Below are positions 8,092 through 20,542 of a stretch of 64,000 bases of DNA, piece after piece. Origin of the DNA: an uncultured Gemmataceae bacterium (GTDB lineage Bacteria > Planctomycetota > Planctomycetia > Gemmatales > Gemmataceae); contig CAVVPN010000003.1 of NCBI GenBank assembly GCA_963750165.1, forward strand, positions 3,328,001 to 3,392,000, in the 5' to 3' direction. The position numbers and the translations under genes were made by a program. A model generated the notes under the pieces. It was given only the letters and a program-made list of their open reading frames with translations, was not told where the DNA came from and searched no databases. The first letter of the stretch is position 1; each line of letters opens with the position of its first letter.

Positions 8092-8312
8092 GAGGTTGTC
8101 CGTTGTCCGAAAGGTTGGGCGTCTTCATCCTGCGGCTGCCGCCTGGCGGAGGAGCGCTACAAAGGTGCGCGACCAGGCCACGGCGATGTTGTCGTCCAAC
8201 AAATCTATGCTGTTAATTTAACCAGCGCGGGCGATTTGAACACGCCGAAAAATCGGAAAACTGGCGCAGGCGGGAAAAAACCTGGGTGGGGGGAGCGGCG
8301 GTAGCGGGCGGG

Positions 8313-9151
8313 TCAGCGCGCCACGATGGCGATGCCGTGGCGATCCGCCAGGGCGACGGTATCGGCCTGATCGATGACGATGGTCTTGCCCGCCTCGATG
8401 GCCAGGACGGTGGCGCCGGCCTGGTGCATGGCCTCGATGGTGGCGACGCCGACGGTCGGCACGTCGAAGCGCATGTCCTGCTGCGGCTTGGCGACCTTGA
8501 CGACGACGAAGCCGCCGCGCGGGCACAGCCGGCCGGCGCGCAAAATGGCCTGGTCGGTGCCCTCGATGGCCTCGACCGCCAGGGCCGCCTTCTCCTTGAC
8601 GGCGACGCTCTGGCCGACATCGAGCCGGCCCATCTCGCGGGCCAGTTCCCAACCGAAGTCCACGTCCGCCAGCTCACGCGCCCCCGGGCGCGGCGCGTCA
8701 ACACTCCCGTTTGCACGAGCAACTCCGGGCAAAAGTCCAGGGCCGAGGCGAACTGCACTCCATCCCTGGCGAACTCCTTGATGATGCCGAGCAGCAGGCT
8801 ATCGTCACGGTTGTCGCGGCGGCCGCGGCCGTACCAGAAACGCAGTGTCCGCAGGTCCGGGATGTAGTGCAGCCAGCGCCAGGGCGTGTTCATGACGACC
8901 TTGTGAATCTTGCCGGCCATGACCGCCTGGCGACAGCCGCCGCGCTTGAAGCAGCGGATCATCGCTCCGAGCCGGGCCAGGCCGACCCACTCGAAGCGCT
9001 CCACCAAACCGGCCAGCTCCGGCGGCGCCAGGTTGCGGATGCCGGCGCACACGACTGGCAGGCCCAGCTGCCGCGCCTTCTCGGCGAACAGCACCGGGAA
9101 GCGGCCGGCGCCGGCGAGCAGGCCCACGGGTTGGGTGGAGCGCGAAACCAT
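8313..9151 (-). CDS. lpxI: UDP-2,3-diacylglucosamine diphosphatase LpxI, apparent frameshift near 8685
   Basis: GLLAGAGRFP N-terminus; DVGQSV, AVEAIEGTD and DMRFDVPTVG in the second frame; follows lpxD. Confidence 0.92.
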
Positions 9152-9164
9152 GAATGAAAGCCCG

Positions 9165-10196
9165 TTACGCGGCGTCCTCCTGCTGCCCGAGACTGAGGTG
9201 CTGCTTGATGGCGTGAACGTCCTTGCGAATCTCGGGCAGCTTTTCCAGCGTCATGAGAATGCGTTTCTGCTCGCGCTCCGGGGTGGCCGGCGAGCCGAGC
9301 ACGCGCAGGCCGTCGGGCACGTCCTTGGTGACGCCCGCCTGGCCGCCGACGACGGCGCCGGTGCCGATGTGGACGTGGCTGACGACGCCGACCTGACCGG
9401 CGAGCACGACGTAATCGCCCGTGCTGCACGAACCGGCCATGCCCACCTGGCTGACGAACAGATTGTGCCGGCCGACGCGGCAGTTGTGGCCGACCTGCAC
9501 CAGGTTGTCGATCTTGGTGCCGGTGCCGACGCGCGTCGCCTGAAAGGTGCCGCGGTCGATGGTCGTGCAGGCGCCGACCTCCACATCATCGCCGATCTCG
9601 ACGAAACCGAGTTGCGGCACCTTGACGTGGCGACCGTCCTGGAAGCGGTAGCCGAAGCCGTCCGCCCCGAGCACCGCGTTGCCGTGGACGATGACCCGGT
9701 GGCCGAGCACGGTATCGTCGTACAGGACGACGTTGGCGTACAGGAGCACATCATCGCCGAGGCGGCAGTTGCGGCCGACGACGACACCGGGGTAAATGCG
9801 GCAGCGGGCGCCGATGACGGTGCCCGCGCCGACGACGGCGAATGGGTAAATGCTGGCGTCGGGGCCGACGCGGGCGCTGGGGTGGACCTCGGCGCGCGCA
9901 TCGATGCCGTGCGGTTGCGCCTCGGCGTGGCCCTGCATGTGGCGGACGATGGCCACGAAGGCCATGAGCGGATCCTGCACGCGGATGAGGGTGCGGTCGG
10001 GGGCGGTGACGCCGGGCGGGGCCACGACGCAGCAGGCGCGGCAGTCGTCGAGGCGGCGGGCGTGGACTTCGTGGTCCAGGAAGGTGATGTCGCCGGCGCC
10101 GGCCTCGTCGAGGCAGCGGGCGGCACGGACGACCTGGGTGCCATCGCCGAGGACCTGTCCGTGTACGAGGTCGGCCAACTCGCGAACCGTAATCAC
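9165..10196 (-). CDS. lpxD: UDP-3-O-(3-hydroxyacyl)glucosamine N-acyltransferase
   Basis: Hexapeptide repeats, [13 protein letters not shown] and [11 protein letters not shown]. Confidence 0.97.
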
Positions 10197-10314
10197 GTGA
10201 CTGTCCTTTCTTCCCTGAAAGACGGGCACCGCCCAGGCCGGCGCCGAAATCGGCCGCGATCATAGCCACCGACCCTGGATCGGGCAATGCGAGTTTGTCG
10301 CGCGCGGAACGGCG

Positions 10315-11069
10315 TCACCACGGCGTCATACCGCCGTTGACGCAGAGTGTCTGGCCGGTCACGAACGACGCCTCTTCGCTGGCGAAGTAGAGCACGGCGT
10401 TGGCCACATCCTGCGGCACCCCCCAGCGGCCCGCCGGGATCAGCCGCAAATACTCGTCCTTGGCCTCCTGCGGATCCTTTTCATGGCGCTCCACGGGGAT
10501 CCAGCCCGGCGCCACCATGTTCACGGTGATGCCGAACGGCGCCAGCTCGCGCGCCATGCTCCGCGACCAGCCCGTCTGCCCGCCCTTGGCCGCCACGTAT
10601 GCCGAGAACGGCGCCACACTGCGGTGGAACACTTCACTGGTGATATTAATGATGCGGCCCCAGCGTCGCTGCTTCATCGCCGCCAGGCTGCGGCGTGTCA
10701 GCAGGTAGGGGCTCTTGACGAAGAAATCCGTCATCGCCTGATAAAACGCCCAGTCGTACTCCTCGATGGGCCGGAGCGGTTGTTCGCAGGTGGCGTTGGG
10801 CACCAGGATGTCCACGGGTCCGAGTTTCTGCTCGGCCTCGGTGAACAGCAGGTCCACGCCCGCCTCGGTGGTGGCGTCGCTGCGGACCAGGATAGCGCCC
10901 ACGCCGGCCGCCTGGAACTCGGCGAAGGTGTGCTCGGCGCGGGCCTGGTTGTTGCAGTAGTTCAGCGCCACGCGCGCCCGGCCTTGCCGAGCGTCAGGGC
11001 GATGACCTTGCCCAGACCGGTGCTGCTGCCGGTGACGACGGCGACGTGGTTTTTCAGCGAAAACGGCAT
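10315..11069 (-). CDS. SDR family oxidoreductase (FabG-like), apparent frameshift near 10978
   Basis: VTGSSTGLG in ORF 10962..11288; YVAAKGG, NMVAPG and VTGQTLCVNGG in ORF 10315..11109. Confidence 0.9.
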
Positions 11070-11110
11070 ACGCACTCCTCGTGGGGGTCTCCTGGTCCGA
11101 GCCGCGCATT

Positions 11111-11171
11111 CCGCCTGAAGAGAGCGTCCAGCTTTTCCAACACCTGAAAGCTGGACGCTCTCTTCAGGCGG
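11111..11171. repeat. REP-like palindrome
   Basis: CCGCCTGAAGAGAGCGTCCAGCTTT...AAAGCTGGACGCTCTCTTCAGGCGG. Confidence 0.8.
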
Positions 11172-11194
11172 TACTACGAACCAGGACCGGGGCG

Positions 11195-11758
11195 TCATTT
11201 CGCGTTGAGGGACACGATGATTATGCCGAAGATGATGCACCAACCGACCAGCCCGAGGGCGCCGAGCGCGGTGCCGACGATGCCGCAAATGCGGCCGGCG
11301 TTGGTGGAGCCTTCGCCGTCAGGGTCCATGCGGCCGGCGCGGATCTCGGTCAGGTCCGTGTTGCCCATCACCCAGGCGATCGGCCCCATGATGATCGAGG
11401 CCACCGTCCCGACGCCGTAACACCAGCCGAAGACCGCCGCGGCCACGATGCTGATGATGCCCAGCGTGAGCACGGCACTGCCGCGGTGCGGCATCAGGTC
11501 GCGGCGCGGTCCGGAGTCGCCGTAGCCGCCACGGTCGCGGTCCCAGTCCCGATCACGGTCGCGGCGGCTGTCGCGGTCGTCGGTCCAGCGGTCGTCGGAG
11601 TAGCGTCCGGGGGAGCCGGCGGGTGCGGTGGGCGCCGGGCCGCCGACCCGGGCGGTGAAGGTGGCGCCGCAGGTGGGGCACTGCACGTCCTGGCCGATCA
11701 GGCCCTCCGGCACCTGCAGTTTGCGCTTGCAACTGGGGCAGCTGATGATCTCTTGCAT
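11195..11758 (-). CDS. Zinc-ribbon + DUF4190-like membrane protein
   Basis: CPSC...CPTC, an R/D-rich linker, PHRGSAVLTLGI and AGRICGIVG. Confidence 0.85.
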   Translation of the reverse strand: MQEIISCPSCKRKLQVPEGLIGQDVQCPTCGATFTARVGGPAPTAPAGSPGRYSDDRWTDDRDSRRDRDRDWDRDRGGYGDSGPRRDLMPHRGSAVLTLGIISIVAAAVFGWCYGVGTVASIIMGPIAWVMGNTDLTEIRAGRMDPDGEGSTNAGRICGIVGTALGALGLVGWCIIFGIIIVSLNAK

Positions 11759-12142
11759 GCGTCCTCACTTGCCTCGCGTCCGGGGTTCACAGGTCGTCGA
11801 AGAGGACGCCGTTATTTCCGGAAGGGCTCGCCGGCAACCAGCCAGGAGAAGCCCCCCCTCTCCCTGATGTTCGTTGACCGAATGGTTTTGTTTGACCGGG
11901 GCCGAAAAGCCAACGAGTTATCCAGAGTGTATCCGTGGTTTTCACCGCTGAGAAGGGCCGGCCGCCGGTTTCTTGCCCGACTGCCGCCGCGGCGGCACCT
12001 TGTTTCGGCGCGCGGCGCGGTTAGAATAATCCTTCGTCCCTGACCAACCCGGGCGCCGGTCTCCACAGCACACGGACGTGTGTTCCGCCGCCCGGACGCG
12101 AAGCATTCCCAGACCTCGCCCTCTCTTCGACCCCCAGCGCGC

Positions 12143-15100
12143 ATGCACCGCGAAATCTCGCACACCGATTCGGCGTTCGCCCCGCAGCGCAACCTGGCGC
12201 TGTACCTGCTCACCGGCCTGCTCGGCCTGCTGATCGCCATCGACGGCTGGCCGCGGCTCGTCGAACTGTTCGGCTGGCGCGGCCTACCGACCTGGCCCAA
12301 TCAGATCGCCGGCTATCCCATCGCGCTGATCGCCGCGGTCATCGGCGGCGCTCGCATCCTGTTCACGTCGCTGGAGGGGCTGCTGGAAGGCCGCGTCGGC
12401 GCCGACCTGGCGCTGGCCATCGCCTGCATCGCCGCCCTGCTGCTCAACGACGAGAAGACCAACGAGGGCGCGTTGATCGCTGCGGAGATCGTCTTCATCG
12501 GCCTGTTCGGCGAGTGTCTGGAGGCGTTCACCTTCGACCGGACACAGCGGGCCATCCGCCGCATTCTGGAGGTGTGCCCGCGCCGCTGCTGGCTGCTGCG
12601 CGACGGTCAGGAGGTCCGCGTTCTGACTCAGGAACTGAAGGGCGGCGATGTGGTCGTGGTCAAGCCGGGGGCACGGGTGCCGGCCGATGGCGTGGTCCGC
12701 GACGGCCGTTCCGCCGTGGACGTGAGCGCCCTGACCGGCGAGAGCACGCCCGTGGACAAGGTGGCCGGCGACGAGGTGCTGGCCGGCTCGCTCAACCAGT
12801 TCGGGGCGCTGACCATCCGCTGCGACCGCGTCGGTGAGCAAACCGTCGTCGGCCGTGTGGTCGAGTTGACGGCGCGGGCGCTGAAGGACAAGGCCAGCAT
12901 TGAACGCACCGCCGACCGGCTGGCGCGCTACTTCCTGCCGGCGGTGCTGGGGCTGGCGCTGGTGACGTTCCTGGGGGCGCTGATCCTGGGCGGCGGCAAC
13001 CGCGACGAGGACTCGCTGCGCAACGCGGCCATGCCGGCGCTGGCGGTGCTGGTGGTGGCCTGCCCGTGCGCCCTGATCCTGGCGACGCCGGCCGCCATTA
13101 TTGCGGCGCTGGGCCGGCTGGCCGGTACGGGCGTGCTCATCAAGGGCGGTGCCGCGCTGGAGCGGCTGGCCGGCGTGACCGCGTTCGCCTTCGACAAGAC
13201 CGGCACGCTCACCGAAGGCAAGCTGACGCTCGGCGATGTCCACGGCCTGGCCGGCGTCAGTCCCGACGAACTGCTGCGCGTCGCCGCCGCCGCGGAGCAG
13301 CGCAGCGAACACCTGCTGGCCCGCCTCATCCTGCAGGAGGCCGCCGTCCGCAAGCTGGAGCCGGCGCCGCTGGAGGATTTTCAGGCTCACGCAGGCGCCG
13401 GCGTCACCGCCCACGTCGCCGGCCAGACGGTGGTTGTCGGCACACGACGGCTGCTGGAGGAGCAGGGGGTCGCGCTGCCGCCGGAAGCGCTGGCGCTGCT
13501 GGAGCAGCTGGACGCAAGCGGACAGACGGCCTTGCTCGTGGCCCGCGACGGCGTGGTGCTCGGCGCCATCGGCGCCCGTGACGAGGTGCGCGAGGACGCC
13601 GCCGTGGTCCTGGATGAGCTGCGGGCGCTGGGCATCAGTCAGATCGCGCTGCTGACCGGCGACCGGGCCGCCGTCGCCCGTGCCGTCGCTGCGAAGTTGA
13701 AGATCGACGACGTTCACGCGGAACTGCTGCCCCAGCAAAAGGCGGAACTGGTCGAAAAACTGGGGCAACGCGTGGCGATGGTCGGCGACGGCATCAACGA
13801 CGCCCCGGCGCTGGCCCGCGCTGACGTGGGCCTGGCCATCGGCGGCGGCACCGATGTGGCCGCGGAGGCGGGCGACCTGGTGCTCATGGGCGCCCCGCTG
13901 CGGCCGCTGCCGTTGCTGGTGCGGCTGTCGCGTGAGACGGTCAAGATCATCCGTCAGAACATTCTCTGGTTCGCGTTCGGCGTCAACGCGGTCGGCATTC
14001 TGTTGACGGCCTGGCTGTGGCCGCTGCTGCTGCCGAAGGACTGGCACAATCGGGCGCCCATCGCGGCGGTGCTGTACCATCAACTCGGCTCGCTGGCGGT
14101 GCTGCTGAATTCGATGCGGCTGCTGCGCTTCGAGCGCGGCGCCAGTCCGGGGCTGGAGCGCACCCGCGGCGTCTTCAAGCGCATCGACGCCTGGATGGAA
14201 ACGTATCTCAACGTAGACGACTTCTTCCACTGGGTCAGCCACGCCTGGCCGCGGTTGGCGGCGGTCGGCGTCGTGCTGCTGCTGGTCGGCTACGCCCTGA
14301 GCGGGTTGACGATGATCCAGCCCGACGAGCAGGGCATCCGTCGCCGCTTCGGCCGGCCGGTTGAGGATCTGGGGCCGGGGCTGTACTGGTGCTGGCCGTG
14401 GCCGGTCGAGGACGTGGTGCGTGAGCGCGTGGACCGCATTCGCACGGTCGAGATCGGCTTCCGCCTGGACCCGAAGAGCGGCCAGAAGGGAAGCACAGTA
14501 TTTTCCTGGTCGTCCTCGCACGGCGACGACGGCATCAAGCGCATCGCCGACGAGGCGGTGATGATTACCGGCGACGGCAACCTGGTGGAAGTGCAGGCGA
14601 GTGTGCGCTACCGCATTGTCGATCTGCACACGACGGCCTTCCAGGTCAACGAGGTGGACGAGATCGTGCGGGCCGCGGCGGAGGCGGTGCTGCGCGGCAT
14701 GGTGGCGGGCCGACCGTTCGCCGAACTGCTGACGCAGCAGCGCGGGGCGTTTCAGCGGGACGTGCTGGCGCGGCTGAAGGAGCGCTGCCGGGAGTACAAG
14801 CTCGGCATCGAACTGGACGGCTTTTCGCTGCACGATTTGCACCCGCCGCAGGAGGTGGTGCTGTCGTACTACGAGGTGACGCGGGCGATGGAGACGCGCG
14901 ACCGGCTCATCAACGAGGCCCAGGCGGACGCGCTGCGCAGCGTTCGCACCGCGGAGGCGCAAAAGACGAAGCTGGTGTTGATGGCCCAGGCGGAGCGCAA
15001 CGAGGCCATCCGCCAGGCGGAGGCGAACTACGCCACGTTCGCGCAGCGCAGCCAGGCCCGCAAGCGGCTGGGCTTCGACTACGAATGGGCCGAGTTCCTG

Positions 15101-15373
15101 GGTGCGGTCGATGGGCTGCTCGACGGCACCGACCCGGCCGCGGTGTGCGACCGCTACTGTGCCCGGCGCGCGCAGGCGCTGCAAACCCACGCGGCGCTGA
15201 TGGACTTCCGGCTGTACTGGGAGACGCTGAGCCGGTCGCTGACGGGCCGTGACCTGGTGCTGATCGACGCGGCAAAAATCACGGGCCGGCGGCAGCTGAT
15301 GTTCCTGGACCCGGAGCAATGGCGCATCCCGGTGCCGATCCTGATCCAGCCGGATCGCGAGACGTCGAGGTAG
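12143..15373 (+). CDS. P1B-type cation-transporting ATPase fused to a C-terminal HflK-like SPFH domain
   Basis: TGES, ACPCAL, DKTGT, TGD and [10 protein letters not shown] motifs, then an extra TM helix and an SPFH domain (RRRFGR...[10 protein letters not shown]...[19 protein letters not shown]...HPPQEV). Confidence 0.93.
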
Positions 15374-15381
15374 AAATAATA

Positions 15382-15494
15382 TCACCACAAAGACACAAAG
15401 AGCACAAAGGAAAAGGCAAGGATAAAGAAATTGATTTAATCAATCCATTTTTTGCTTTGATTTCTCCTTTGTGCTCTTTGTGTCTTTGTGGTGA
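15382..15494. repeat. Intergenic hairpin with 9-nt periodic arms (CACAAAGA[C/G])
   Basis: TCACCACAAAGACACAAAGAGCACAAAG...CTTTGTGCTCTTTGTGTCTTTGTGGTGA. Confidence 0.85.
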
Positions 15495-15522
15495 ATTCCT
15501 CTTCTCCTGTGAGGGTTCACCG

Positions 15523-16536
15523 ATGCGGATTTTCTGGTGCCTGCTCGCCGTGGTGCTGGGGCTGGTGGTGCTGTCGCAGTGCTACTTCACGGTCGATCCG
15601 ACCGAGTTCGTTTACGTGACGCAGTTCGGCGCCCCGGTGGCGGTCTACGACGGCGGCGCCCGCGACAGCGACGCCGGCCTGCACTGGCGCTGGCCGTGGC
15701 CGGTGCAGTCGGTGCAGCGCCTCGACCGCCGCCTGCAATACTTCGACCTGCCCGCCGCGGAACTGCTCACCAAGGACGCCGCCGGCGCCATCGACAAGAC
15801 GCTGACCGTCAAGGCGTACGTCTGCTGGCGCATCGTCGGCAAGGACACCGACGAGAACGGCGTCGATCGCTTCATCCGCCGCATGGGCAACGCCAAACAG
15901 GCCGAGGCGACGCTCGGCAAACGCCTCAACGGCGAACTCGGCGCCGTCATCGGCCAGATGCGCATGGACGACCTCATCAGCACCGACAGCGCCCGCGTGG
16001 AAACCAACCTGAAAGACCTGCGCGACCGCCTGCTCGGCAGTCTCCAGTCGCCGGCCCAGACCGAGTATGGCATCGAACTGGTCGATATTCGGCTGCGGCG
16101 CTTCAACCATCCGGCCCAGGTGCGCGAGGCGATCTTCGAGCGCATCCGCAGCGACCGCAACAAGCGCGTCGAGGAGTACCGCACGGAGGGCAAGCGCCTG
16201 GCCGACAACATTCGCAGCAACGCCAAGAAGAAGGTCGATGACCTGCTCGCCCAGGCGAAGTCCGAGGCCCGCATCCTCAAGGGCGAGGCGGAGGTCGAGG
16301 CCGACCGGCTGCGCAACCTGGCCAACCTGCAGGATCCCGAGTTTTACGTCTTCCTGAAGAAGCTGGAGAAGATGCAGAGCATCCTCGGCGAGAACAAGAC
16401 CCTGCTGCTGCTCTCGACGCACCGGCCCATCTTCGACCTGCTGTTCGCGCCGCCGCGGCCCGGGTTGAACGGCCCCGTCATGCCGCAGCAGCCGCCCGCT
16501 CCGCCGGCGCAGCCGAAGAAGGAGGGCGGCGCATGA
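15523..16536 (+). CDS. hflC: HflC-like SPFH protein
   Basis: N-terminal TM, YVTQFGAP, DRRLQYFD, ELLTKD, IFERIRSDR and DPEFYVFLKKLE. Confidence 0.85.
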   Translation: MRIFWCLLAVVLGLVVLSQCYFTVDPTEFVYVTQFGAPVAVYDGGARDSDAGLHWRWPWPVQSVQRLDRRLQYFDLPAAELLTKDAAGAIDKTLTVKAYVCWRIVGKDTDENGVDRFIRRMGNAKQAEATLGKRLNGELGAVIGQMRMDDLISTDSARVETNLKDLRDRLLGSLQSPAQTEYGIELVDIRLRRFNHPAQVREAIFERIRSDRNKRVEEYRTEGKRLADNIRSNAKKKVDDLLAQAKSEARILKGEAEVEADRLRNLANLQDPEFYVFLKKLEKMQSILGENKTLLLLSTHRPIFDLLFAPPRPGLNGPVMPQQPPAPPAQPKKEGGA

Positions 16537-17579
16537 AATACGTGCTGTATGGGCTGCTGGCGTTATTGCTGCTGTCGCTGCTGACGGGCGTGACGCAGGT
16601 GCAACCGGGCGAGCGCACGGTCATCTGGCGCTGCGGCCGGCTGCTGGACGAGAAGCCGGGGCCGGGCCTGTACGTCGGCCTGCCGTGGGGCCTTGACCGT
16701 GTGGAGCGCGTGCCCATCGAACTGGTGCGGCGCGTGACGGTTGGCTACGAGCCGCGGCTGACGGACGAGGACGGCGTGACGATGCCCACCGGCCAGATGC
16801 TGACCGGCGATCACAACCTGGTGAACGTGCAGGTGGTGCTCGACTACAACGTCATTGAGGCGGAGGTGGAGCAGTTCGTGGTGCAGCAGGACGGCGTGGA
16901 CGCCCTGGTCAACCGGGCGGCGGAGACGGCCCTGGCGGAGTGGGTCGCCGGCCGCACCGTCGATGAGGTGCTGCTGCACGGCAAGCGAACGCTGCCGCCC
17001 TGGCTGGTGCAGCAGACGCAGCAGCGCATCGGCCCCTATCGGCTGGGCATCCGCATCCAGGGCGCTTACGTGACGCACCTGTATCCGCCGGCGGACGTGA
17101 AGCCGTACTTCGACGAGGTGACGCGAGCGCAGACGGAGATGCAGACGGACATCGTCAAGGCAGAGCAGGCCGCGAGCAGCCTCTGGCGCACGGCCGAGGC
17201 GGAGAAGTACGACATTGACATTCAGGTGACCTCGTACCGGCGCGAGCAGCAGCTGCTGGCGGCGGCGGATGTCGAGACGTTCGAGAAGCGGCTGGCCGCG
17301 TACCGCACGTTTCAGCGGAGCGACCCGGCGCTGGCCTGGTGCGCGGGCGGCGTCGCCGGGCTGGCGGCGCCCGGCGGCGGCGGACCGCTGGCCGGCGCCG
17401 CGGCGCTGGCGCACGGCGGCGGCGCCGGCAGCCGGTATCTCAACGCGCTGTGGTGGGACGAGATGAGCCGGCTGTACGGTCGGCTGCGGACCACCGGCCG
17501 CATTGATTTGCTGGACAATTACCTGAGCGGCGCGGGCCTGACGATCACGCAGGTGCCGACGCTGCCGAAGCGCAAGTGA
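16533..17579 (+). CDS. hflK: HflK-like SPFH protein
   Basis: PGLYVGLPWG, MLTGDHNLVNVQ and YPPADVKPYFDEV; ATGA overlap with hflC. Confidence 0.8.
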   Translation: MKYVLYGLLALLLLSLLTGVTQVQPGERTVIWRCGRLLDEKPGPGLYVGLPWGLDRVERVPIELVRRVTVGYEPRLTDEDGVTMPTGQMLTGDHNLVNVQVVLDYNVIEAEVEQFVVQQDGVDALVNRAAETALAEWVAGRTVDEVLLHGKRTLPPWLVQQTQQRIGPYRLGIRIQGAYVTHLYPPADVKPYFDEVTRAQTEMQTDIVKAEQAASSLWRTAEAEKYDIDIQVTSYRREQQLLAAADVETFEKRLAAYRTFQRSDPALAWCAGGVAGLAAPGGGGPLAGAAALAHGGGAGSRYLNALWWDEMSRLYGRLRTTGRIDLLDNYLSGAGLTITQVPTLPKRK

Positions 17580-17609
17580 GTCGCCCGTCTCCCAACTGAA
17601 GGAGGTCGT

Positions 17610-18047
17610 ATGCGGAAGGTATCGGCCTGTATGGTGGCGGTCTGTCTGGTGGCGCTGGCCGCGGTCGCCTGGGGCAGCCCCCAGGACGCATCGAAGATCG
17701 ACGGGACGTGGACGGTCGTCGGGGGCTCCTCCGACGGCCAAAAAATCCCCGAGCAAAGCCTCAAGGAAACCCCGGTCACGATGGAACTCAAGAACGGCAA
17801 ATACACCCTCTTCGTGGCGGGGAAAAAGTTGGAGGCGGGAACGTATCGCCTCGACATCAACAAGAAGCCGGCCACCATTGACCTGAGCCTCACCGCGGGC
17901 GCCGACAAGGGCAAGACCCTGCTTGGCATTTTCAAGCTGGCAAGCGGCCAGCTGACCATCGCCATGAGCAAGGCCGGCGTCAAGCTGCGGCCCAAAAACT
18001 TCGAGCCCGCCGACGGGATCGACACGTTGGAACTGAAGCGGAAGTGA
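17610..18047 (+). CDS. TIGR03067 domain-containing secreted protein
   Basis: Signal peptide, IDGTWTVV, GTYRLD..KKPATIDL and GIFKL. Confidence 0.85.
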   Translation: MRKVSACMVAVCLVALAAVAWGSPQDASKIDGTWTVVGGSSDGQKIPEQSLKETPVTMELKNGKYTLFVAGKKLEAGTYRLDINKKPATIDLSLTAGADKGKTLLGIFKLASGQLTIAMSKAGVKLRPKNFEPADGIDTLELKRK

Positions 18048-18101
18048 GTGATTGTTGTTGATGCGTTTCCGTTTCGCGCAGCCTTCTTGCCCTGTCTCCC
18101 G

Positions 18102-18497
18102 TCACTGAGCCGTTGCCACGGGCGTCGGGTACAGGTAGATCTCCTCCGCGAAAATATCGCCGATGCGTTGGCCGGGAAACCGCGTGGGCGTCCGAACGGG
18201 GTAACGCCGCAGCAGCGCCAGGGCGTCCTGCGCCAGCGGGTCGTCTGCCCCGATCAATTTCACCCGCATGAGGTCGAACCACGGATCCCGGAGTTCATCG
18301 GCGATCCTCCCGACTTCTTCGTACCCCACGTCGAAATTGTCGTCCGTGATCTGGTCCGACGCGACGTAGAGCCAGGGTTGGCTCGCTTCCTCATCCTTGA
18401 GCCAGAAAGCGACCTGGACGGGGGCGTACTTGTTAAACTCACGAAGAAACCTGGCGCCGGCGTCGATCTGCGGTTCTACCAATGTGACCTGACCCAT
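18102..18497 (-). CDS. Hypothetical protein, partner of the upstream HEPN-like gene (putative antitoxin)
   Basis: Overlaps the stop of the HEPN-like gene; AFWL...WLYVAS...Y pattern. Confidence 0.7.
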   Translation of the reverse strand: MGQVTLVEPQIDAGARFLREFNKYAPVQVAFWLKDEEASQPWLYVASDQITDDNFDVGYEEVGRIADELRDPWFDLMRVKLIGADDPLAQDALALLRRYPVRTPTRFPGQRIGDIFAEEIYLYPTPVATAQ

Positions 18498-18614
18498 TGC
18501 ATCACCCCGTTTGGTTGGTTCGTGATTGTGTTATAGAGTTTCTTGGCTCGTTGATGCGTCGTGGTACGGTAACGGGACTGTTCACTCCAGTCCTTGACAA
18601 CCTGCCAGTGCTTA

Positions 18615-20001
18615 GGCAACGTTTCAAAATTAATCCGCAGTTCCCTTCTACAATAACCCTGGCCCAACCGGGGGCCTGGTTTGGAAGGGAGGCAGAGCCG
18701 TGGACATCCACCAATGCCAATGCCCTCACTGCCGACAAGGTGCGGACCACCCCGAACGCGCCCTCCATTACCGGCTCAACCTTCTCCTGAGCCGGTTGGA
18801 TGAGCACCAACGCCGGTGGTTGGCAGCCTGGGAGTCCCAGAAGGTCGGCCGCGGCGGCGACCGCCTACTGTCCCTCATCACCGGCCTGAACGTGGAAACC
18901 ATCCGGCGCGGTCGCCGGGAACTCGAGGACTCCCTGCGGGACTGCCCCCCGGATCGCATCCGCCGGCCCGGGGCAGGACGGCCCGCTGTGAAAAAAAAGT
19001 GCCGGGCCTCATGAACGCTTTGAGGCAGCTGGTTGAGGAGCAGACCGCCGGCAGCCCGCAAACCTGTCAGAAGTGGGTGCGCCACAGCGTCGCCTACCTG
19101 AGCACGCGGTTGCAAGGCCAAGGCTTCGCCGTCAGCCCCGCCACGGTCTATCGCCTGTTGGACGACCTGGGCTATTCGCTCAAGGCCAACCGCAAGCGCT
19201 TCACCGGCCCGCCTCACCCAGACCGGGACCGGCAGTTCGCGTACATCGCCGGGCAGCGGCGCCGCTTCGCCATCCTCGGCCAGCCGGTGATCAGCGTGGA
19301 CAGCAAGAAAAAGGAGTTGATCGGCAACTTCAAGAATGCAGGGCGGCAGTGGTGCCGGCGCGCGACGGAGGTCAACGCCCACGACTTCCTGGACGACGCC
19401 TTGGGCCGGGCCGTCCCCTACGGGGTCTACGACGTGCGCCAGGACCGCGGCCATGTCTACGTGGGGTTGTCCGCCGACACCGCGGCGTTCGCGGGGGACG
19501 TGATCGGCCGGTGGTGGCGCGGCGAGGGACGGCTGTGGTACCCGCAGGCCGACGAGTTGCTGATCCTGTGCGACGCGGGCGGGAGCAACAGTTGCCGCGT
19601 GCGGTTGTGGAAACAGCGCCTCCAGGAGGAGTTGGCCGACCGCTGGGGGCTGTGGGTGACGGTGTGCCATTACCCGCGGGGGGCGTCGAAGTGGAACCCG
19701 GTGGAGCACCGGCTGTTCAGCCGCATCAGCGTCAACTGGGCGGGGGAGCCGCTGCGAACCGTGGAGACGCTGTTGGCCTGCATCCGGGGCACGGAGACGG
19801 ACGCCGGTTGGGCGGTACGTGCGACGTTGCTGGACGCGGAGTACGCGAAGGGGGTCAAGGTGCCGGACGCAGAAATGCAGACGTGGCGCCTCCAAAGGCA
19901 TGCCGTCTGCCCCAGTTGGAATTACACCATCAAGCCACGTTGGACAATATTCTAACATCAGCACCCAGGTGTAAGCTGCGGACTAATTTTGAACGGCTGC
20001 C
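18615..20001 (+). mobile_element. ISAzo13-family insertion sequence (1387 bp)
   Basis: TIRs GGCAACGTTTCAAAATTAATCCGCAG / GGCAGCCGTTCAAAATTAGTCCGCAG (22/26 identical); TTA duplication at 18612-18614 and 20002-20004. Confidence 0.95.
18700..19955 (+). CDS. ISAzo13-family (Rhodopirellula-type) DDE transposase, -1 frameshift at A8G (18991-18999)
   Basis: ORF A has LDEHQRR...RIRRPGAGRP. ORF B has HPDRDRQF, ISVDSKKKELIGNFKN, CDAGGSN and SKWNPVEHRLF. Confidence 0.93.
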
Positions 20002-20542
20002 TTACGGAAAGCCGCGTTCGCGGCTTCAAGCGCGGCCCGATCGGGTTCCAGGCCGGCGAGTTTGACCAGGTCGAGGAGATTGTGCGTCCAGCACTTTTCC
20101 GAGAACCTGCGATCCTCGAAAACCACCTCGTTGGTGACGGCCACACGTGCCAGGACGCACGCCTTGAGCCCACACTCGACGGCATAGCCGGCCACATAGT
20201 ACGCCGCCGACCAGCAGTGGGCGTCGAGCATGGCCTTGGCGTCCACCAGCCAGCGGTCCGCGAGCATTTGCCATTGCAACCGGTTCACCGCGCTGACCTC
20301 CCTGTCAAATCGCGATCGACAACCGCGGATTCCTGTTGACAGGAGACGCGGCCTCCGCGTCGGCGCCCAGAGAAGTTCTGGGCGGGTCGGCGCGGACTGC
20401 GCACAGGTCGGCAGTTCGTCCGCCACCCAGCGCTCGCCCCGAAATCTCCCCATTTCCTTTGCTACCAACCCGACAATTCGGTAATTTAGAGAAGAGGAAA
20501 GATGCCCGCCATCTGCCTGCCGTGGTGTTCCTGGAGAGCTTG

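Follow-up and report, generated by a model that had tools for sequence, protein, structure and literature searches.

The stretch of DNA analysed here (64,000 nucleotides (nt) of contig CAVVPN010000003.1 from an uncultured Gemmataceae bacterium, hereafter the window) encodes a P1B-type metal pump fused in a single open reading frame to an HflK-type SPFH subunit, here called K1, which is followed by genes for an HflC-type subunit (C) and a second HflK-type subunit (K2). The fusion is confirmed as real, it is conserved, and it is uncharacterised in the literature searched. In other genomes the same trio is joined to metal transporters of two further, unrelated kinds, and for this reason it likely forms a cage that surrounds such transporters and not FtsH. 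Our preferred reading, to which we give a probability of about 0.5, is that the three proteins form a periplasmic SPFH ring around metal exporters, which holds the exported ion and hands it on.

The roles of bacterial SPFH cages towards clients other than FtsH are open, mostly because their cargo is unidentified; here the cargo is written in the gene. With three unrelated metal transporters sharing one K1 position, the effect of the cage wall on metal flux becomes accessible to a direct test.

The fusion of a P1B pump to an HflK-type subunit

A preliminary description of the locus had proposed a 1076-amino-acid (aa) frame carrying a complete P1B ATPase, one more membrane helix and an SPFH domain, and the domain scan bears this out. 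Pfam places E1-E2_ATPase at aa 146–327, Hydrolase at 346–561 and Band_7 at 724–930, each above its cut-off; the NCBIfam model for heavy-metal P-type ATPases (TIGR01525) scores 543 bits against a cut-off of 346, and the translation contains TGES, CPC, DKTGT and GDGIND. The 120 best homologues listed, one of them the query itself, all have the same three Pfam domains, so that the fusion is neither chance nor an assembly slip; their names indicate Gemmataceae, Planctomycetota. A longer GTG start at 12080 (1097 aa) was rejected, as the aligned homologues start at MHR.

The AlphaFold2 model, built from 142 homologues (mean predicted local distance difference test score (pLDDT) 87.4), shows eight pump membrane helices, the last ending at residue 662, then two linker helices, a hydrophobic helix, the SPFH domain and long helices to residue 1033 (Table 1). 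Given that P1B pumps end in the cytoplasm, the extra helix would make the SPFH part periplasmic, as it is in HflK; the charges flanking this helix leave its topology unsettled. Two additional helices (aa 978–1033; window 15074–15241) follow the HflK-like long helix in the model and are perhaps part of a cage cap.

Table 1. Features of the fusion locus, with positions counted from the first letter of the window.
Feature	Positions	Strand	Basis or remark
P1B-ATPase and HflK-type SPFH (K1) fusion gene	12143..15373	+	single open frame, 1076 aa
P1B-ATPase part, aa 1-662	12143..14128	+	eight modelled membrane helices; A, P and N domains; conserved N-terminal MHRxxxH
CPC motif of membrane helix M4 (C307, C309)	13061..13069	+	invariant in 142/142 fusions
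H646 in membrane helix M6 (HQxGS)	14078..14080	+	invariant in 142/142; at the position of the MxxSS methionine of CopA
Linker helices aa 669-700 (likely amphipathic) and extra membrane helix aa 702-719	14147..14299	+	structure model; topology inferred
SPFH domain aa 724-930 and long helices aa 903-1033	14312..15241	+	Pfam, structure model
WxxxH motif (W789, H793), K1-specific insertion	14507..14521	+	invariant in 142/142; low model confidence at aa 782-794
H900 of DxHPP (E. coli HflK R243)	14840..14842	+	alignment; invariant in 142/142
Intergenic palindrome, 45-nt arms	15382..15494	.	member of a genomic repeat family
HflC-type SPFH subunit (C), 337 aa, one N-terminal membrane helix	15523..16536	+	Pfam, NCBIfam
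Second HflK-type SPFH subunit (K2), 348 aa, no cargo domain, no histidine marks	16533..17579	+	Pfam, NCBIfam, alignment

The two genes said to follow the fusion are both present, the Band_7 domain (PF01145) being found in K1, C and K2, as expected for the HflK/HflC branch of the SPFH/Band 7 proteins. The ATGA coupling that had been described for them joins C to K2 only; the fusion is separated from C by a gap of 149 nt. An alternative start of C at 15319 (405 aa) was rejected, as that frame overlaps the end of the fusion and crosses the intergenic repeat. K2 has an Ala/Gly-rich insert near its C-terminus (window 17330–17430) and a long branch in the tree.

Conservation of the fusion and of the trio

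A K1 match was found in 110 of 120 genomes of the family, and in 89 of the 110 genomes with a strong hit (this genome included) the hit lies in a frame of at least 1000 aa; the other 21 comprise 13 truncated by contig ends and eight with frameshifts or stops. The preliminary description had allowed for a stop between the ATPase and SPFH parts, or for the absence of the fusion from relatives. Neither was found: the fusion is widespread in the family, and, as judged from relatives and not from reads, there is no clean stop in the linker, one relative (L313) being broken there and the stops of another (L296) being unmapped. Divergent fusions carry names from Abditibacteriales, Sumerlaeota, Thermoanaerobaculia and Planctomycetota, four of ten clusters having a taxon.

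The arrangement of the three genes was examined in 20 family loci picked for their long contigs. K1, C and K2 are adjacent in 10, K1 and C in three, and the fusion stands alone in seven; nine of the ten genomes with a split operon retain C and K2 orthologues elsewhere. No FtsH was present in the fetched split-operon loci, and no canonical hflKC pair was found in those genomes. Four genomes from three genera, 96–100% complete, gave no K1 or K2 match; C was not found in them either, in a search that had no positive control of its own, and the M6 histidine motif is absent from all seven of their ten pump hits that are readable through M6. K1, C and K2 are mostly kept or lost together, which is co-retention and not proof of binding. 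In the family the trio is single-copy and near-universal. The genome of the window (9.6 Mb, 93% complete) has five Band_7 genes, namely the trio and two that we label stomatin-like.

Three transporter families share the K1 position

The survey of synteny and fusion across genomes extended the genomic half of the earlier proposal, showing that the fusion is conserved in the family and in other phyla and that the trio occurs with three kinds of transporter. Across the phylum, the search for K-type subunits gave a match in 128 of 301 genomes and no HflK-like match in the other 173. From the resulting table we picked 40 genome stretches and added five plasmid regions; the trios surveyed in them comprise 10 pump fusions (the window and two contig-cut cases included), five K1 with a cation diffusion facilitator (CDF) domain (PF01545), 10 with an SO_0444 Cu/Zn efflux permease (PF03773), and seven with a multi-helix domain that has no family name. 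Both permease fusions tested scored above the cut-off of NF033936 (SO_0444 Cu/Zn efflux). We refer to this K1-C-K2 type, or hmtA-locus type, as a class defined in this analysis and not as a curated family; the window belongs to it by its long K1 with a transporter domain, its C and K2, the histidine before PP and the WxxxH motif.

A profile built from 25 K1 domains matched 4108 representatives at E 1e-30 or better. Among the best 150 of these 4108, a few of which are input rows, we classified 55 as pump, 30 as CDF, 14 as permease and nine as unnamed-domain (decayed-CDF-like) partners, with 37 short and five unclassified proteins; Pfam agreed with all ten pump, CDF or permease labels checked, and no fourth transporter family appeared on K1 within these 150. 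Both HxxxD motifs are kept in 25 of 29 CDF partners checked, one row with a duplicate stretch being left uncounted. A profile search for longer proteins returned only pump fusions and fragments of them in 120 listed rows, and is silent on other partners.

In Pseudomonas and enterobacteria the pump is a separate gene. Among 80 proteobacterial genome loci, the best of 563 and close kin, the order K1-C-K2-pump was found in 76, the remaining four being cut by contig ends (three) or frameshifted (one). The separate pump carries CPC and HN[L/M]ST, with the M6 histidine, in 73 of 73 cases, and fused and separate pumps fall into two groups of the tree (Shimodaira–Hasegawa-like approximate likelihood ratio support 87 and 100). 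The K1 of these loci bears the unnamed domain, whose model (pLDDT 87) best matches SLC30A10 (Z 12.4, root-mean-square deviation (rmsd) 3.6, 171 residues aligned) and ZnT3 (Z 11.7, rmsd 4.4, 202 aligned), the next structural match after the CDF proteins being ferritin-like at Z 10.1. The top Foldseek rows are also CDF proteins, at a weak E of at least 0.11; profile comparison gave no match to CDF (hhalign 0.9%), and an HxxxD motif was found in none of 79 rows. Taken together, the domain is probably a decayed CDF. The complex predicted for the separate pump and the N-terminal domain of the unfused K1 of P. fluorescens (L144) scored 0.21 against a mark of 0.32; as the controls were not folded, this counts neither way.

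Some further features of such loci are worth recording. Ahead of its membrane helix, the C protein of P. fluorescens carries a His-rich N-terminal stretch (L144:9446-9560), likely cytoplasmic, which the C of the window lacks. In Paraburkholderia (L092:1-13492) the four-gene unit adjoins a zinc ABC importer, a GTP-binding protein and a PCu(A)C copper chaperone, and in Rhizobium (L091:13640-15268) a Na+/H+ antiporter follows the pump. Two-gene hflK-hflC pairs are coupled to nhaA on a Vibrio plasmid (L048:6788-10157) and lie near nhaA on a Roseibium plasmid (L047:83-8874); two-subunit cages may also have transporter clients.

The metal-site signature of the pump

The pump part has the features of a P1B-type ATPase: A, P and N domains, TGES, DKTGT, GDGxND, eight helices and a CPx motif in M4. 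It matches solved P1B pumps in structure (Foldseek E to 5e-44; TM-score 0.83 over 7r0g), and its catalytic residues are invariant across the 142 sequences, as are C307, C309, N615, H646 and N656. The reported lack of an N-terminal metal-binding domain holds in that a Pfam scan found no HMA-type domain in the fusion; a short N-terminal histidine motif is conserved all the same (H2 in 137 and H7 in 128 of the 142 homologues).

Judged by its residues, the pump fits none of the P1B subgroups compared. Against P1B-1 Cu+ pumps (CopA), it has VN for YN in membrane helix M5 and HQLGS for MxxSS in M6. The fusion narrowly passes TIGR01511 (402 against 397), the source of its Cu+ database names, and because it has VN and HQxGS instead of the CopA motifs we reject the name Cu+-exporting ATPase; a separate CopA-type pump is present in this genome. 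The P1B-2 Zn/Cd pumps (ZntA) have a lysine in M5 and DxG in M6, a signature also seen in the L275 pump; the fusion has neither and scores far below the cut-off of the ZntA models, and it passes the broad TIGR01512. P1B-4 pumps carry SPC with HEG[T/S], and an M6 histidine, as in P1B-4 and P1B-6 pumps, would favour divalent ions. The P1B-6 signature is D[Y/F]SCA with HNxxT (bioRxiv 2020.01.10.902569; statements on published work refer here and below to the accessible text of the papers cited). Both subgroups were rejected, given that the fusion has CPC in 142 of 142 sequences and that its M6 histidine is similar to theirs in kind only. Together, N615 in M5, H646 in M6 and the CPC form a putative P1B metal-site signature, CPC / N / HQxGS, outside the compared subgroups, to which the locus draws attention, and the transported ion is probably divalent (Zn, Co or Mn rather than Cu+). 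PMC3221041 and PMC11672702 offered no information on motifs, and an ESM Atlas search returned only unnamed clusters or proteins of the fusion's own kind.

Histidine marks of the K1 domain

The best solved match of the K1 SPFH profile is E. coli HflK (E 5e-54). We compared 74 aligned HflK-type domains (32 K1, 28 K2 and 14 canonical HflK) and found two marks of K1. A histidine stands at the position of E. coli R243, H900 in the window, in 30 of 32 K1, spread over all four partner types, and in none of the K2 or canonical HflK domains. The WxxxH insertion is present in 20 of 22 non-permease K1, in none of 10 permease-fused K1, and likewise in no K2 or canonical HflK. It also occurs in 73 of 73 proteobacterial K1 and in none of their K2 or C. 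Among the K1 representatives, the counts are 54 of 55 for pump, 29 of 30 for CDF, eight of nine for unnamed-domain and 0 of 14 for permease partners, figures that are biased since the search profile itself contained the motif. The order of strands in the model would place both the insertion and H900 at the tip of SPFH2 farthest from the membrane, where H793 and H900 may form one site.

Relation to FtsH and canonical HflK/HflC

The window indeed lacks ftsH, as had been reported, but the genome encodes two full FtsH proteins with a periplasmic loop elsewhere, far from the trio. No FtsH stands beside any trio gene in the loci checked. By the equivalog models, K1 and K2 score 134 and 97 against the hflK cut-off of 159 (TIGR01933), and C passes hflC by 0.5 bit (TIGR01932, 134.9 against 134.4, scored on the longer frame from 15319); a canonical pair used for comparison reaches 299 and 253, and some fused K1 of other genomes do pass the hflK cut-off. 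The gene unit also differs from the canonical unfused two-gene hflK-hflC, having three genes of which the first is fused. In the unconstrained tree canonical HflK forms one clade (96/80), and the K1 of the window lies outside it, in a starred set of 29 K1 and two K2; the K1 sequences taken together depart from a single clade by three changes.

In E. coli HflK, joint change of R141, E142 and R185 weakens FtsH binding (PMC13220708). The equivalent residues are R, T and R in K1 and R, R and N in K2, and other canonical-type HflK also lack the full E. coli set. R185 is common to all K types and does not discriminate between them, and nor do the contact residues as a set. The trio and a canonical hflKC pair occur together in 10 genomes, which were picked for extra hits and of which only G107 has the pump fusion. 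Moreover, the lack of any HflK-like match in 173 of 301 genomes of the phylum indicates that a missing canonical pair need not be replaced. The proposal of a cage around the pump rather than FtsH stands as likely in its second part, with the reservation that no other set of this type was found in the genome and that K1 keeps two of the three contact residues, which leaves some probability to an FtsH partnership.

Published context and nearest known systems

We found no paper on an SPFH-transporter fusion, in a search that covered few subscription papers and no supplements or figures; a survey of prokaryotic SPFH proteins does not contain the word ATPase in its accessible text (PMC2636767). The preliminary description knew of no functional characterisation, which holds for the fusion. 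For the unfused arrangement there is a published case, the P. aeruginosa hmtA locus, to which no mechanism has been attached. Mutation of znuA raises PA2434-2439, comprising hmtA and three hflK/C-like genes, 5.6- to 14-fold (PMC4542158); the locus is also up in Zn-depleted proteomes, where the SPFH proteins were read as FtsH partners (PMC11761036), and Zur shifts the PA2439 promoter (PMC8531726). In a 2026 study, deletion of the SPFH genes (PaFlo5-7 in PA14) cut biofilm by about 20% and slightly weakened virulence in larvae (PMC13086221); the main text of that paper contains neither ATPase nor copper and its sections no metal assay, although figures or tables may show the pump gene. From gene order and annotation, this locus appears to be of the unnamed-domain K1 type. 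It shares with the window three SPFH genes and a P1B pump (HmtA is PA2435), with Zur bound at the P. aeruginosa locus; the matching operons of other Pseudomonas and enterobacteria share CPC, the M6 histidine and WxxxH. Unlike the window, where the pump is the N-terminus of K1, it has the pump as a separate gene and a K1 with a probably decayed CDF. The window locus also offers an explanation for this Zur-bound locus, whose SPFH deletion had only slight phenotypes in standard assays.

The closest structural relative is the E. coli HflK/HflC cage with FtsH (7vhp, 7vhq, 7wi3, 9cz1, 9cz2, 9paw), in which 24 alternating subunits enclose up to four FtsH hexamers with two helices per subunit (PMC12048511). 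K1 and K2 are HflK-like, C is HflC-like, and the predicted layout of one helix, an SPFH domain and long helices is the same. The trio differs in having three subunits instead of two, a covalent cargo that is a transporter, the WxxxH insertion and R243 histidine of K1, a K1 score below the TIGR01933 cut-off, and a location outside an hfq-hflX operon. The human stomatin dome, which encloses AQP1 and UT-B (PMC12407830), is likewise an SPFH oligomer with transporter cargo, but it is eukaryotic, has one subunit type, and holds passive, non-covalent channels with no metal. CopA (7r0g, 3rfu), ZntA (4umv) and the P1B-4 pump 7qbz share the fold, catalytic motifs and CPC in M4 with the window pump, which differs in VN, HQxGS, the lack of a soluble N-terminal metal domain and a C-terminal SPFH part absent from solved pumps. 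Dedicated membrane partners of P1B pumps are known from mycobacterial CtpC, which requires the scaffold partner PacL1 (PMC9374683), and from ferrosome FezB (bioRxiv 2020.01.10.902569), whose M6 motif HNxxT is as in the separate pumps while its M4 has D[Y/F]SCA and not CPC; unlike in the trio, these partners are not described as SPFH proteins in the accessible text.

A proposed periplasmic cage around metal exporters, weighed against its rivals

By analogy with HflK/HflC, K1, C and K2 would co-assemble into a periplasm-facing SPFH ring around several pumps. Such a ring would alternate K-type and C subunits, K1 bringing the pump and K2, as a cargo-free spacer, filling the remaining K places, with the pumps presumably inside. 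The arithmetic of helices would explain a cargo-free K2: four FtsH hexamers have 48 helices, as have six pumps, whereas twelve pumps would have 96. Each of the three partner families bears the name of an exporter, and a review counts all P1B pumps as exporters (PMC10654040), so that the ion would come out beneath the cage, where histidines of K1 could hold it in a walled chamber and pass it to periplasmic proteins. In its mode of action the trio would then resemble cargo-bearing SPFH cages, which are a known kind of assembly, while falling outside the canonical HflK/HflC cut-off and gene unit. A more detailed version, in which K1 is the socket of a modular metal antechamber for three unrelated metal exporters, its histidine site captures the ion in a chamber of about 20 nm for periplasmic metalloproteins or a carrier, and the decayed CDF is an adaptor for the separate pump, we put forward only tentatively; if true, the antechamber would be a periplasmic metal compartment made of SPFH proteins.

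A number of points weigh against the cage around exporters. The three genes are not all adjacent in 10 of the 20 family loci, one split-operon genome (G370, 97% complete) gave no C match, and genomes that are related do not count as independent samples. WxxxH is missing from all 10 permease-fused K1 and is thus dispensable in some versions, and the single-chain model has a predicted template modelling score (pTM) of 0.66, with pLDDT below 50 in the WxxxH loop. Neither this genome nor any of 10 relatives examined yielded an HflK/C-type set besides the trio; K1 keeps the R141 and R185 equivalents, two of three FtsH contacts; and forcing the window K1 into the canonical clade costs 41 log units at an approximately unbiased (AU) test p of 0.050, which is not a clear rejection. 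HmtA is described as an atypical Zn/Cu importer (PMC4542158), hmtA mRNA is not repressed by Zn (PMC8531726), and import is a simpler reason than export for induction in Zn shortage; in Pseudomonas such induction suits supply of periplasmic clients better than detoxification, but suits import equally. Finally, assembly, pump position, metal and direction are all matters of inference.

The rival that we would put next, though unlikely, is a scaffold, in which a ring or patch of the trio clusters, stabilises or shields the transporter, as a lipid microdomain or chaperone, and chamber and histidines have no part in metal movement. All the genomic evidence fits it equally well; stomatin is portrayed as fencing in its cargo (PMC12407830), CtpC needs PacL1 (PMC9374683), and the permease-fused K1 do without WxxxH. 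Yet K1 retains H900 with each of the four partner types, K2 and canonical HflK lacking it, and every identified partner is a transition-metal transporter, a limit that a general scaffold would not need. Somewhat less probable is the same cage run in the opposite direction, its ring gathering scarce periplasmic Zn or Cu for an importing pump, as proposed for HmtA. The description of HmtA as an importer, the rise of its locus in Zn shortage (PMC4542158, PMC11761036), the binding of Zur to the PA2439 promoter (PMC8531726) and the zinc ABC importer beside the Paraburkholderia unit all speak for it, while the efflux names of the other K1 partners, the review that makes every P1B pump an exporter (PMC10654040) and the lack of repression of hmtA mRNA by Zn (PMC8531726) speak against it; as fused and separate pumps form separate groups, the HmtA data may not carry over in any case.

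We consider it less probable again that the trio is this lineage's FtsH modulator, the fusion bringing the pump to FtsH for regulated turnover or the pump merely riding along. Its standing as the sole HflK/C-type set in this genome and 10 relatives, single-copy and near-universal in the family, would suit such a role, as would the two FtsH genes with a periplasmic loop, the R141 and R185 equivalents and the AU p of 0.050. Against this, canonical HflK is a clade of its own (96/80) with the window K1 among the 29 K1 and two K2, the trio coexists with the canonical pair in 10 genomes and in P. aeruginosa (PMC13086221), no FtsH lies beside the trio genes in the loci checked, 173 of 301 phylum genomes do without any HflK-like match, and R185 is common to all K types. 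That sequencing or read-through has produced an artefactual fusion, or that the fusion is a dead accident of recent origin, is next to impossible: apparent frameshifts do occur nearby (about 8200–9150 and 10300–11300) and L313 breaks at the linker, but 119 homologues share the domain set, the frame of at least 1000 aa in 89 of 110 family genomes leaves only 13 contig-cut and eight frameshift or stop cases, and the invariance of the catalytic residues in 142 sequences completes a pattern of conservation by which this idea is already refuted.

The intergenic repeat and neighbouring genes

The palindrome between the fusion and C is purine/pyrimidine-skewed, its arms being 87% complementary, and has 90 matches on both strands of this genome (40 of 74 candidates scored); we take it to resemble an intergenic repeat of the repetitive extragenic palindrome (REP) or miniature inverted-repeat transposable element (MITE) kind, and it is probably not part of the system. 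An Rfam scan of 10000–19000 gave no match. Upstream of the fusion there is neither a sigma-70-like promoter nor an AT-rich Zur/Fur-like palindrome, only G+C-rich hairpins.

No neighbour gene is conserved across the Gemmataceae family: the largest real clusters cover three of 21 loci, the bigger ones being opposite-strand shadows of core genes. On the minus strand before the fusion, apparent frameshifts split a gene that we take to be LpxI-like and a short-chain dehydrogenase (window 8213–9151 and 10315–11288), which suggests indel errors in this assembly. After K2 comes a TIGR03067 protein (window 17610–18047), which is not a conserved neighbour, and beyond it, up to 20274 (window 18102–20274), lies what is presumably an ISAzo13-like transposase between two small genes that seem to resemble a HEPN toxin-antitoxin pair.

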